A stretch of DNA of 4,902 nucleotides from a virus (IMGVR_UViG_3300029102_000236); one strand, 5' to 3'; shown: positions 1,774-4,788, numbered from the stretch's first letter. Made by a program: numbers and translations. The notes: generated by a model from the letters alone, not told the origin.

Positions 1774-2058
1774 TTATTCAGTGCCGATATTTACCTTTAT
1801 CGCGTATACCTTTACCGGTTTATCACCGAAGTGCGGATGTGTGATTGTCTTCACTTCATATCCGTCATACGGAACATCAACTCTGCGGCTGGAATCGTCG
1901 CGCTTCGGATATCCCTTTGTGATAATCAGGCGGTCATGCTTACGGTTAACGAGGCGCTTTTTCCAGTAGTCATTACACAGGCGATACTCTTCCGTTTTCT
2001 CTCCGCGAATCATGGCATCGAAGTATTCACCTTTAACGGCAAGTTGCAGGTTAGCCAC
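1774..2058 (-). CDS. ASCH/PUA-like small beta-barrel protein, 94 aa, GTG start
   Basis: The ORF is open to 2142, but the GTG at 2058-2056 is preceded by AAGGAG (plus coords 2065-2070) at 6-nt spacing and gives a minimal overlap with the upstream gene. N-terminus (V/M)ANLQLAVKGEYFDAMIRGEKTEEYRL matches the ASCH-type signature (K-x-E-Y-F-x-A-I-x-x-G-x-K-T-x-E-x-R) as I recall it. Overlaps the stop region of the upstream MazG-like gene by 8 nt. Confidence 0.6.
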   Translation of the reverse strand: MANLQLAVKGEYFDAMIRGEKTEEYRLCNDYWKKRLVNRKHDRLIITKGYPKRDDSSRRVDVPYDGYEVKTITHPHFGDKPVKVYAIKVNIGTE

Positions 2059-2791
2059 GGTTAACTCCTTGCTGTGTGGCGTCGAGTAATAAATCCCACA
2101 ACCGCTGAGAGCAATTTCCGCATGTACAGCGTTGACCCACAACGTTTATCGCGTTGCTGATTTCCGGCGTTACCTGTTTAGGAACCATAACCCAACCATC
2201 CGGAGTTACCGGAAGCGAGAACGGCAGCACATCTCTGTGAACAAGTTTTTGCTGTGACAGGTTATCCAGAACTTTCTGTACTGCTGCATCACCGAATACA
2301 CCAAGCGCATCTGCCATAACTCCTACAACCTGATAAGCCTCAGCGCATACCGTGGATAAACCATCCGGAATTACCGGAGAGTTGCCGGGTTCTTTAATGT
2401 GCAAGCGAGGCTCACCATCTTTTGGCTCAGGCCACTGGCGCTCCATGTTGATCTTCAATTTATCTTCCATAGCAACGGTAATTTCAGCATCGCTGATGCC
2501 AGCACGGCGCTGTGCATCCCACAACAGAAACTGCATATCAGCCCACTCGCTAAGATCGTCTGGTTCGGCTGCGGCTTCCAGTGCCTCTTTTGAGAGGTGT
2601 TTCAGTGGACCAATGGGGCCAACGCAGCCAAATGTGGAGTCAGACCATTTGGCATGCTCGTGGCGAATCTGTTCGCGTTCCAGTGATGCCAGTGCAATTC
2701 GTGCTAGTTCCATTTGTTCGCCACGAGTAAGCCCGTTTTCAAGCGGATTTTTAATGAACAATTCAATACGTTCTTTGGTAATAGTGGTCAT
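2051..2791 (-). CDS. Modular protein with a MazG/HisE-like NTP pyrophosphohydrolase domain (DUF550-like), 246 aa
   Basis: ATG at 2791-2789 overlaps the TGA of the upstream gene (ATGA). The central region KEALEAAAEPDDLSEWADMQFLLWDAQRRAGISDAEITVAMEDKLKINMERQ resembles the all-alpha MazG helix pair (acidic E-x-x-E helix, then D-x-x-L-W-x-L...G-I-x...KL-x-KN-x-R). It is followed by the linker GNSPVIPDG and a C-terminal module containing C-x-C-x2-C (RCTCGNC). The N-terminal approx 45 aa are paralogous to the ORF at 3550-3804. Confidence 0.7.
   Translation of the reverse strand: MTTITKERIELFIKNPLENGLTRGEQMELARIALASLEREQIRHEHAKWSDSTFGCVGPIGPLKHLSKEALEAAAEPDDLSEWADMQFLLWDAQRRAGISDAEITVAMEDKLKINMERQWPEPKDGEPRLHIKEPGNSPVIPDGLSTVCAEAYQVVGVMADALGVFGDAAVQKVLDNLSQQKLVHRDVLPFSLPVTPDGWVMVPKQVTPEISNAINVVGQRCTCGNCSQRLWDLLLDATQQGVNRG
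2367..2384. repeat. Dispersed 18-mer ggaattaccggagagttg, copy 1 (encodes the NSPVIP linker of the MazG-like protein)
   Basis: Exact 18/18 match to 3354-3371. Both copies encode N-S-P-V-I-P in the reading frame of their respective genes. Confidence 0.9.
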
Positions 2792-2997
2792 GTGTTAATC
2801 CTCAAAACTTTATGCCCGGGCGCAAAAGTACGTGTTTTGTCTTTGCTTATTCGCCACCCGTCTTTACGGGCCTCTTTTGCACAACCAGACCATGACGTAC
2901 CGATATACTCACCGAAGTCTGGCACTGGATATACACCTTCCGTACACTGGCGACAATCACAATAGAGATGCATGGTGTAACTTGCGGCAATAGCCAT
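2788..2997 (-). CDS. Small Cys-rich protein, 69 aa (hypothetical)
   Basis: The ORF is open to 3039, but the ATG at 2997-2995 lies 1 nt after the TGA of the upstream gene and is preceded by AAGAGAG. Its TGA stop overlaps the ATG of the downstream gene (ATGA at 2791-2788). Contains HLYCDCRQC (C-x-C-x2-C) plus a fourth Cys, a possible metal-binding knuckle. Confidence 0.55.
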   Translation of the reverse strand: MAIAASYTMHLYCDCRQCTEGVYPVPDFGEYIGTSWSGCAKEARKDGWRISKDKTRTFAPGHKVLRINT

Positions 2998-2998
2998 A

Positions 2999-3607: not shown

Positions 3608-3804
3608 CTGTCAGCAATGTTTTTACTCCTCGTTATTGCCGGAATACCTAAGCCATTGTCTGAATGCAGCCATGCCACCGGATTCTCTTCCAGCGATGCC
3701 AGAGCAATTTCATAAGCCCGGCGCTCAACATTGTCTCGCACATCCAAACTGCTGATACGCTCTTTGATTTCTTTAATCAGTTCTTTGTCGGTAAAAGTGC
3801 TCAT
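3550..3804 (-). CDS. Small ORF encoding a conserved N-terminal leader module, 84 aa; paralogous to the N-terminus of the MazG-like protein and possibly the 5' part of a split gene
   Basis: ATG at 3804-3802 is preceded by GGAG at 6-nt spacing and lies 1 nt after the TGA of the Ea22-like gene. The ORF track start at 3825 is a TTG with no RBS. N-terminus MSTFTDKELIKEIKERIS...AYEIALASLEE aligns with MTTITKERIELFIKN...LARIALASLERE of the 246-aa protein. Stop TAG at 3552-3550 falls inside a conserved linker-coding 16-mer. Confidence 0.55.
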   Translation of the reverse strand: MSTFTDKELIKEIKERISSLDVRDNVERRAYEIALASLEENPVAWLHSDNGLGIPAITRSKNIADSWLSKGWYVQPLYMPSQCQ

Positions 3805-3805
3805 A

Positions 3806-4570
3806 TCAATCTCCATTGGTATCAATGTTTACAGCCTGACAAGACTCTTTGAGCACCCAGTCAATAGCGTCTTTCCATGCCTCTGTTTCGACTGGTGGAT
3901 TTTCACGCTTAACCTGTTCATAGAAGCGCACTGCTTTAACCAGTCCTTCCGGTACTACTGGTGATGGCTGTTTAGCTTCTAAATCAGCAATTCTGTCAAC
4001 CACGGCATCGACAGCATCTGAAAAGCCGAACCAGTTGCTCCACTCCGGCTCATCCCCGGTTGCTGCAAAGTACATATCTGCTAAAGCAGATTCAGCATGG
4101 TCACGCTCGTTAATGAGTTGCTCTTCGCTTTTCTCCAGTTCAGCAATACGCTTACCCCCATCCGAGATAACACCTTCGTAATACTCACGCTGCTCGTTGA
4201 GTTTTGATTTTGTCTCCTCAAGCTCAACTCTCAGCTTCCCAACAGTAAGAGCAATATCCTCGTTCTCCTGGTCGCGGCGTTTTATGTATTGCTGGTTTCT
4301 TTCCCGTTCATCCAGCAGTGCCAGCACAGTAGCCGGATTGGCTGCGGCGATGAATTCAGCATTGGCCTGCTGTTCCATTTGGAAATCTTCATCGAAACCG
4401 CTTTCTGGATGCGCTCCTTCAATTCTGCAAATGGGAATATATCCAGCAACTTCACGATGAATTAGCGCATAATCACCATCAAATCGGCTCTCTCCATATT
4501 CGAGCGACCACTCACCACACGTTGCTTTTTCTGCCGCTTCACGCAGTGCCTGATAGTTAATTTCGCTCAC
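3806..4570 (-). CDS. ea22: Ea22-like protein (lambdoid early-left accessory protein with central coiled coil), 254 aa
   Basis: GTG start at 4570-4568 overlaps the TGA of the upstream TraR-like gene (GTGA) and is preceded by GAGAGG at 6-nt spacing. The central segment LLDERERNQQYIKRRDQENEDIALTVGKLRVELEETKSKLNEQREYYEGVISDGGKRIAELE matches, as I remember it, the conserved core of phage lambda Ea22. N-terminus MSEINYQALREAAE is likewise Ea22-like. The C-terminal part follows an SPVVPEG linker. Confidence 0.85.
   Translation of the reverse strand: MSEINYQALREAAEKATCGEWSLEYGESRFDGDYALIHREVAGYIPICRIEGAHPESGFDEDFQMEQQANAEFIAAANPATVLALLDERERNQQYIKRRDQENEDIALTVGKLRVELEETKSKLNEQREYYEGVISDGGKRIAELEKSEEQLINERDHAESALADMYFAATGDEPEWSNWFGFSDAVDAVVDRIADLEAKQPSPVVPEGLVKAVRFYEQVKRENPPVETEAWKDAIDWVLKESCQAVNIDTNGD
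3946..3961. repeat. Dispersed 16-mer cttcNggtactactgg, copy 2 (encodes the SPVVPEG linker of the Ea22-like protein)
   Basis: 15/16 identical to 3541-3556; encodes P-V-V-P-E in the Ea22-like reading frame. Confidence 0.8.
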
Positions 4571-4788
4571 TTCGAACCTCTCTGTTTACTGATAAGCTCC
4601 AGATCCTCCTGGCAACTTGCACAAGTCCGACAACCCTGAACGACCAGGCGTCTTCGTTCATCTATGGGATCGCCACACTCACAACAATGAGTGGCGGATA
4701 TAGTCTGGTAGTTCAGACGACGCATTTTTATTGCTGTATTGCGCTGTAATTCTTCAATTTCTGATGCTGAATCAATGATGTCCGCCAT
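4567..4788 (-). CDS. TraR/DksA-family C4 zinc-finger protein, 73 aa (lambda Orf73-like)
   Basis: ATG at 4788-4786, TGA at 4569-4567. Cys pattern C35-x2-C38-x17-C56-x2-C59 (CCECGD...CRTCASC) is the TraR/DksA C4 zinc-finger arrangement. The 73-aa size and position in the early-left operon match small phage TraR homologues. Confidence 0.8.
   Translation of the reverse strand: MADIIDSASEIEELQRNTAIKMRRLNYQTISATHCCECGDPIDERRRLVVQGCRTCASCQEDLELISKQRGSK

Follow-up and report, generated by a model that had tools for sequence, protein, structure and literature searches.

The 4,902-nucleotide (nt) stretch IMGVR_UViG_3300029102_000236, called the window in the following at its full length, raises the question whether two of its genes work together: orf73, encoding a 73-amino-acid (aa) protein of the TraR family, and a gene for a 246-aa EaA-type protein with a DUF550 (PF04447) core. 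A reading made from the sequence alone, here termed the sequence-only reading, had placed both genes in one early operon and proposed a two-pronged manipulation of host stringent-type control, in which the first protein acts on RNA polymerase (RNAP) and the second, a 'MazG-like' hydrolase, on the ppGpp or nucleotide pool. According to the analysis described here, the two are very probably unrelated accessory genes, one for an Orf73-type regulator and one for a MazZ-type pyrophosphohydrolase, and not a functional pair. By sequence comparison, the window is an ordinary integrase-to-exo (exo-xis) region of a lambda-like Escherichia coli prophage, a well-populated segment. Both genes would thus be accessory genes of the exo-xis segment (the b-region side of pL) in a prophage of ev017/Jouyvirus type that carries a phage-21-type integrase at icd.

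The 73-aa protein (MADIIDSASEIEELQRNTAIKMRRLNYQTISATHCCECGDPIDERRRLVVQGCRTCASCQEDLELISKQRGSK) carries C35, C38, C56 and C59 in the exact spacing C-x2-C-x17-C-x2-C, encoded at about 4612-4686. The zinc finger named in the sequence-only reading could therefore be confirmed, and it is supported by matches to PF01258 (zf-dskA_traR; 35.7 bits at a cutoff of 24.9, E = 8.4e-9) and to phrog_54 ('DksA-like zinc-finger protein', E = 1.5e-24). Two extra cysteines, C36 and C53, raise the total to six, all of them present as in lambda Orf73. The DxxDxA motif is found as D3-I-I-D6-S-A8, and E44-R45-R46-R47-L48 corresponds to the ExxRL motif of lambda Orf73, which is identical there and is equivalent to the R48/R49 region (ExxRK/L) of TraR. 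The length fits the small size of the TraR subfamily, which has a single N-terminal helix in place of DksA's coiled coil. The cutoff of the curated NCBIfam model TIGR02419 was narrowly missed (54.2 versus 59.7 bits), which is not meaningful because the protein is 97% identical to the characterised lambda Orf73 (71 of 73 residues, with the differences H27Y and A29T) and an identical protein is named 'TraR/DksA family transcriptional regulator' by PGAP. The allele is common, as at least 18 IMG/VR loci encode a 100% identical protein. In lambda, the open reading frame (ORF) is absent from the RefSeq annotation and was found by translation between ea22 and orf61; the same annotation gap was observed in the RefSeq record of Escherichia phage ev017 (L001, 10570-10887; lambda NC_001416, L003, 2893-3114).

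The activities of purified lambda Orf73 have been published. It competes with DksA for RNAP, inhibits rrnB P1 (half-maximal inhibitory concentration about 50 nM) and rpsT P2 in the absence of ppGpp, and loses most of this inhibition when the DxxDxA motif is altered by D3N or D6N (PMC9239242). Furthermore, it restores a dksA null strain on minimal medium by complementation, reduces the growth rate of the host and increases the phage yield about 4-fold after induction, while activation of thrABC, argI and rpoH P3 is weak if it occurs at all, possibly through the two extra cysteines (PMC9239242). The same hallmarks of Orf73 are given in a modelling paper (PMC8614690). Due to the 97% identity and the conservation of every named motif, the window protein can be assigned the same function, and we infer that it binds the RNAP secondary channel and regulates transcription initiation without ppGpp. 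Its N-terminal helix with the DxxDxA motif would enter the secondary channel, and the protein alone would shift initiation kinetics so that promoters of rRNA and ribosomal proteins are inhibited. This inhibition would divert host resources towards a higher phage yield, as was shown for lambda Orf73. The RNAP-targeting part of the sequence-only reading is thus correct and, given the published activities, not new; the RNAP-binding, transcription and growth experiments that it had proposed for the 73-aa protein are already available for its 97%-identical lambda counterpart (PMC9239242).

The 246-aa protein consists of an N-terminal module (residues 1-37), a DUF550/MazZ-type core (about 38-140) and a C-terminal module (about 145-246). 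Residues 42-137 match PF04447, now named dATP/dGTP pyrophosphohydrolase and formerly DUF550, with 141.8 bits (cutoff 23, E = 8e-42), covering profile positions 1-96 of 97. A single-sequence phmmer search with the 246-aa protein against the PDB returned nothing, nor did a pairwise BLASTP comparison with the MazZ fragment, and only profile searches succeeded. For these, a profile was built from the core together with the members from Klebsiella phage Sushi, Mycobacterium phage Kostya, Pseudomonas phage phi297 and P22 (EaA). Its sole significant PDB match was 7ODY, the 'MazG-like pyrophosphohydrolase (MazZ)' of cyanophage S-2L (E = 2.4e-7), and the hhalign comparison of the window core with MazZ gave a probability of 95.2%. 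In the opposite direction, the MazZ fragment matched PF04447 with 41.8 bits, next to weak matches to MazG-like, PRA-PH (HisE) and MazG families (PF03819, PF12643). The designation 'MazG-like' is therefore correct at the superfamily level.

The residues that define the MazZ active site could be located in the window core. E69, E72, E82 and D85 align with the Mn2+ ligands E35, E38, E50 and D53 of MazZ, and R118 aligns with R83, the transition-state arginine adjacent to the beta-phosphate. D92 takes the place of D60, which contacts the guanine 2-amino group, and K111, N115 and W120 that of the pocket residues K76, N80 and W85. The roles of the MazZ residues and the conversion of (d)GTP to (d)GMP have been described (PMC8342488). 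All mapped residues except D92 are invariant in a close alignment of 40 enterobacterial sequences as well as in a divergent alignment of 8 homologues from Klebsiella, Mycobacterium and Pseudomonas phages; D92 shows no variation in the divergent alignment and very little in the close one. Those PF04447 members that have been characterised act as (d)GTP or dATP/dGTP pyrophosphohydrolases (PMC8342488, PMC12884076). Judged by these conserved residues, the 246-aa protein is very likely an active nucleoside-triphosphate pyrophosphohydrolase, and its substrate is most plausibly a guanine nucleotide. Its core would be an all-alpha MazZ/DUF550 enzyme with a metal site formed by the conserved E-x2-E ... 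E-x2-D motif, and would most probably release pyrophosphate (PPi) from (d)GTP, and possibly from dATP, leaving the monophosphate.

Homologues of the 246-aa protein are abundant, with at least 8000 close matches, mostly from E. coli and annotated as 'DUF550 domain-containing protein' or 'Phage EaA protein'. At 50% identity, 3,847 clusters with dozens of architectures were counted. In the alignment, residues about 39-133 form a core that hardly varies, while the modules on its N- and C-terminal sides change from one protein to the next. The motifs ARIALASLE, NSPVIPDGW and GWNACRAAML at the module borders recur in neighbouring, otherwise unrelated exo-xis ORFs (also at 2999-3532 and 3550-3804) and look like recombination or linker junctions. 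In pairwise comparisons of the 246-aa protein with the neighbouring ORFs, only IALASLE and NSPVIP were found in common, which is too short for significance. In E. coli ATCC 25922 (L002, 8051-8791), the identical 246-aa ORF is split by PGAP into a coding sequence (CDS) of 187 aa and a 'partial' pseudogene, and elsewhere it is given as one DUF550 CDS. The DUF550 gene of Mycobacterium phage Kostya (L157, 1085-3155) lies between genes for a pol III epsilon-like exonuclease and a DNA polymerase exonuclease subunit, and that of Pseudomonas phage phi297 (L158, 1-2279) between genes for a DNA methylase and a DUF4406 protein; each is a setting of DNA or nucleotide metabolism, unlike the lambdoid exo-xis region.

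A role of this enzyme in the alarmone pool found no support. In the ten ORFs of the window, a Pfam scan at E <= 0.1 detected none of the (p)ppGpp-hydrolase domains looked for (SpoT/Mesh1 HD, Nudix, canonical MazG PF03819). Activity on (p)ppGpp has not been reported for any PF04447 member, and the characterised ones produce (d)GMP or dAMP from triphosphates. The same alarmone hypothesis had been made for the MazG of a cyanophage, the only phage MazG tested on (p)ppGpp, which neither binds nor hydrolyses it and prefers dGTP and dCTP (PMC6850273). In addition, Orf73 and other TraR homologues act without ppGpp and are unaffected by it (PMC9239242); lowering the ppGpp level would therefore not change the action of Orf73 at RNAP.

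The co-occurrence of both genes was determined in IMG/VR loci, for which the 80 best matches per anchor were sampled (Orf73, L006-L085; DUF550), a selection biased to close relatives. A DUF550 gene was present in 24 of the 59 Orf73-anchored loci with at least 3 kb of downstream sequence, and an Orf73-like gene in 21 of the 52 DUF550-anchored loci with at least 5 kb upstream (23/52 if any ORF with CxxC-x17-CxxC is counted). Each gene thus occurs without the other in about 60% of the related loci sampled, and consistent joint presence of a co-conserved pair was not observed. The joint occurrence depends on the orf73 allele: a DUF550 gene was found in 20 of 27 loci with orf73 alleles of 98.6-100% identity versus 4 of 32 with lambda-like alleles. 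The Y27/T29 allele of the window is the one strongly associated with a downstream DUF550 gene, which is located at nine different distances from orf73, between 0.5 and 3.3 kb. That DUF550 tracks the orf73 allele is as expected from linkage by descent in one phage lineage.

The genes also occur separately in well-known phages. Lambda has orf73 and no DUF550 gene, and P22 has EaA and, in every reading frame, neither a TraR-like ORF nor a CxxC-x17-CxxC motif. Among isolated phages, DUF550 is found mainly in lytic Klebsiella phages of the genus Webervirus (365 of 510 records), and TraR-like genes mainly in Escherichia/Stx lambdoids, P2-like phages and large Klebsiella myoviruses. A functional link is hence not supported, rather than disproved, because the samples are biased and the association is not background-corrected.

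The window, in which the common early operon was proposed, comprises the following features:

1-1143, minus strand: int, integrase of the phage-21/icd type
1133-1369, minus strand: xis, assigned by Pfam/PHROG domain scans
1509-1748, minus strand: gene for a DUF4222 protein
1774-2058, minus strand: gene for an ASCH-like 94-aa protein, sharing 8 nt with the end of the 246-aa gene
2051-2791, minus strand: gene for the 246-aa EaA-type modular protein
2381-2668, minus strand: PF04447 (DUF550) core, residues 42-137 of the 246-aa protein, from the Pfam scan
2788-2997, minus strand: gene for a 69-aa cysteine-rich protein (phrog_926), its start over the upstream stop and its stop over the start of the 246-aa gene
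2999-3532, minus strand: gene for a 177-aa protein (phrog_14306) with the junction motifs 'GWNACRAAML' and 'NSPVIP', which recur in EaA-type proteins
3550-3804, minus strand: gene for an 84-aa protein (91 aa from a TTG at 3825; phrog_5117/phrog_660) of the variable exo-xis gene set
3806-4570, minus strand: gene for a 254-aa Ead/Ea22-like protein (PF13935, 138 bits) with a GTG start, overlapping the orf73 stop by 4 nt
4567-4788, minus strand: orf73, gene for the 73-aa TraR-family protein (PF01258, phrog_54)
4810-4902, no strand given: terminal inverted repeat and inner end of the insertion sequence IS1, from a sequence match

All substantial ORFs are located on the minus strand, and ten of them form one tight array, in which stops and starts overlap or closely abut, most pairs overlapping by 4-8 nt. 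The pair orf73-ea22 marks the end of the conserved exo-xis block in lambdoid phages. Over positions 1-4809 the window agrees at 100% identity with Escherichia phage ev017 (Jouyvirus) and with icd-adjacent prophages of E. coli ATCC 25922 and many other strains. In ev017 and ATCC 25922 the array runs on upstream via exo, bet, gam, kil, cIII, ral and N, which gives the order N-ral-cIII-kil-gam-bet-exo-...-orf73-ea22-...-DUF550-ASCH-DUF4222-xis-int. By this synteny, the array of the window corresponds to the exo-xis part of a lambda-type pL operon. The designation 'early-left operon' is a sound deduction from synteny with these relatives and is not readable from the window alone. A scan for promoters and terminators, compared with the shuffled expectation, revealed no convincing intergenic terminator between orf73 and the 246-aa gene; the sole terminator-like matches on the minus strand are located within coding sequence. 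That orf73 and the DUF550 gene share a transcription unit would be due only to the habit of lambdoid phages to gather exchangeable early genes at this place.

Some further observations concern the neighbouring genes. The 69-aa protein (MAIAASYTMHLYCDCRQC...SGC...) appears translationally coupled on both sides, and its cysteines suggest that it could be a further small metal-binding protein. For the ASCH-like ORF (Pfam ASCH, E = 0.054; phrog_625, E = 3e-48), the GTG at 2058 is the likely start, and a longer TTG-initiated reading of 122 aa (1774-2142) is probably spurious. No Rfam family was detected in a scan of the window. The ev017 record (L001, 357-3806) contains sitABCD, encoding an iron/manganese ABC transporter, just past the attachment-site side of int, apparently as bacterial cargo or flanking DNA taken into the phage record.

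Upstream of orf73 the window leaves the phage sequence. All matches to phages and prophages end at position 4809, and 4810-4902 match IS1, the end of which lies 21 nt upstream of the orf73 ATG. In the alignment, the window departs from ev017 and lambda directly after ...CCCTGAATTG and goes on as GGTAATGACTCC... The same junction was found in E. coli PSS-16, and MB53 has it displaced by 1 nt, with IS1 in the same orientation to orf73 in both; in L004 and L005 the junction is located at about 7190-7230 each. PSS-16 and MB53 contain decayed prophages, in which the segment from pL to orf61 is missing and IS1 is followed by nin/Q-region genes or more copies of insertion sequences. A search for the exact IS1/orf73 junction in genome_contigs and viral_contigs returned no match. 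The IS1 junctions of the window, PSS-16 and MB53 occur on different orf73 alleles. These junctions suggest that IS1 has a hot spot for insertion shortly upstream of orf73 or that recombination has distributed an old insertion.

IS1 is polar on downstream genes. Since the element lies only 21 nt upstream of orf73, the array in the window copy would be physically separated from pL, and its expression from pL is doubtful. Of the proposed common early operon, the same strand, the tight array and the early-left position by synteny could be upheld, whereas in the window copy IS1 cuts the array off.

Besides the preferred reading, two unrelated accessory genes in a phage early region, there is one in which the window is a remnant: here IS1 would have cut the array from pL, which is possibly deleted, so that the genes are not expressed as early-left genes and the prophage is decaying. 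The exact departure of the window from all its matches at 4809/4810 into IS1, the loss of pL-N-exo in PSS-16 and MB53 at the same or a 1-nt-shifted junction and the polarity of IS1 speak for the remnant. On the other side, the window covers only the first 93 nt of IS1, and none of the ten ORFs is disrupted, each being 100% identical to its counterpart in the viable phage ev017; we regard such a decayed state as possible, though somewhat improbable. A different role of the DUF550 protein, in counter-defence or pool editing rather than in housekeeping, was considered as well: it would destroy a guanine- or adenine-derived immune signal or chain terminator, or lower dGTP/dATP and thereby stop host replication, with the variable modules serving for targeting or regulation. 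An invariant core with hypervariable flanks (3,847 representative clusters, dozens of architectures) is typical of arms-race genes, the gene sits among early non-essential genes, and the homologues of Kostya and phi297 lie among genes for DNA replication and nucleotides; furthermore, as relayed in PMC9239242, inhibition of host replication initiation was earlier ascribed to the lambda region orf73-ea22-ea8.5-orf55. Lambda, in which this replication effect was seen, has no DUF550 gene, however, and we regard the role as unlikely.

Far less probable is the alarmone pairing of the sequence-only reading. In its developed form, DUF550 would hydrolyse (p)ppGpp or reset the alarmone pool, and Orf73 would force RNAP into a ppGpp-like programme, resulting in rRNA shut-off without the inhibition of translation and nucleotide synthesis by ppGpp, in a coordinated two-gene strategy. 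The guanine-type pocket residue D92 (MazZ D60), the argument in PMC9239242 that TraR homologues avoid the effects of ppGpp outside RNAP and the same-strand co-occurrence in about 40% of the sampled loci, at nine spacings, fit this idea. It is opposed by the triphosphate substrates of the characterised PF04447 members, by the inactivity of the cyanophage MazG on (p)ppGpp, by the indifference of Orf73 to ppGpp and by the occurrence of one gene without the other in most loci and also in lambda and P22, as well as by the abundance of DUF550 in lytic Klebsiella phages, for which no TraR match was found among the lists sampled. With genes that assort independently and an Orf73 that needs no ppGpp, the two-pronged link, which the sequence-only reading had itself called speculative, is regarded as highly improbable. 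Scarcely better placed is a broader version, according to which the EaA/DUF550 core, with its MazZ-like guanine pocket in phages with canonical DNA, may act on GTP, (p)ppGpp or a nucleotide immune signal; it would complement the rRNA shut-off by Orf73 and keep ppGpp- or GTP-dependent processes favourable for the phage, with the variable modules as regulatory or targeting adaptors.

The preferred reading of two unrelated accessory genes has to be held against several points that weaken it. A co-occurrence of about 40% is not negligible, even if it was counted in the best 80 matches, with their bias to close relatives and without a background rate. The exchanges H27Y and A29T may bear on the predicted activity of the window Orf73. 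The assignment of dGTP/dATP as substrates leans on relatives with about 29-33% identity in the core, and the activity of the DUF5664-DUF550 fusion of Acinetobacter phage SH-Ab 15497 is not surely that of DUF550, because the DUF5664 domain of phage Wayne alone is a dNTP pyrophosphohydrolase (PMC12884076). Finally, the fold was not confirmed structurally: AlphaFold2 predicted four helices in the core at low confidence (predicted local distance difference test 57.7 for the full 246 aa, 61.1 for the core alone), and a Foldseek search of these models against the PDB gave no match at E <= 0.001, only unrelated helical proteins. Due to the low model confidence and the unrelated matches, the structural results were discarded.

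As it stands, the finding is of little consequence. The TraR/Orf73 part is already known, as Orf73 is a phage regulator characterised at textbook level, and the prophage domain DUF550/EaA already has a name and is very common, carried by thousands of enterobacterial prophages and by most Webervirus phages of Klebsiella. An experiment would be worthwhile on what substrate and role the EaA-type DUF550 protein, which resembles a (d)GTP pyrophosphohydrolase, has in phages with ordinary A/G DNA.

Among the known relatives of the DUF550 protein, S-2L MazZ (7ODY), a (d)GTP-specific diphosphohydrolase of the MazG-HisE fold, shares with the window core the PF04447 domain, the metal ligands, the arginine, the guanine-N2 aspartate and the K/N/W pocket at about 33% identity over 64 aligned columns. 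MazZ is a stand-alone chain of 111 residues, whereas the window protein has additional N- and C-terminal modules, and mazZ belongs to a purZ-datZ-mazZ cluster for 2-aminoadenine DNA, while no purZ or datZ is found near the window gene. Membership in such a Z-genome cluster was rejected, as purZ and datZ are absent from the window and from the 16.8-kb regions of ev017 and ATCC 25922. The DUF5664-DUF550 protein of phage SH-Ab 15497 converts dATP and dGTP to dNMP and PPi, the activity from which the Pfam name was taken (PMC12884076). Its gene adjoins purZ and a gene for a DatZ-like phosphohydrolase, and both domains (PF18909 and PF04447) were confirmed by a scan. The PF04447 domain is 29% identical to the window core (hhalign 95.6%) with the acidic motif kept; the N-terminal PF18909 domain, which is perhaps part of the activity, is absent from the window protein.

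Canonical MazG of E. coli and cyanophage S-PM2 belongs to the same all-alpha superfamily of NTP pyrophosphohydrolases as the window core, and its family PF03819 gave no match to the window protein at E <= 0.1. A link to (p)ppGpp was proposed for E. coli MazG alone and refuted for the cyanophage enzyme. P22 EaA agrees with the window protein in sequence and place: its DUF550 core is 78% identical, it begins with the same N-terminal residues (MTTITKERIELF...), and its gene lies in the early-left 'ea' region, with the recombination genes on one side and xis/int on the other. It differs by its length of 317 aa and a different C-terminal module, and P22 is without a TraR homologue. On the function of P22 EaA, a literature search gave passing mentions only.

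For the 73-aa protein, F-plasmid TraR has the same length, the PF01258 domain and a TIGR02419 match (below the cutoff for the window protein), and acts by the RNAP secondary-channel mechanism as described for Orf73. It is distant in sequence, as the window protein reaches 27.7 bits with the TraR equivalog NF010268 at a cutoff of 108, and it is unlike lambda Orf73 at thrABC, argI and rpoH P3. Lambda Orf73 differs from the window copy by the two exchanges named above, and in the window an IS1 lies next to the gene. Apart from this, both agree in length, in 71 of 73 residues, in the DxxDxA motif, the C4 finger, the two extra cysteines and the ExxRL motif, and both genes occupy the same place directly upstream of ea22 in the exo-xis block.

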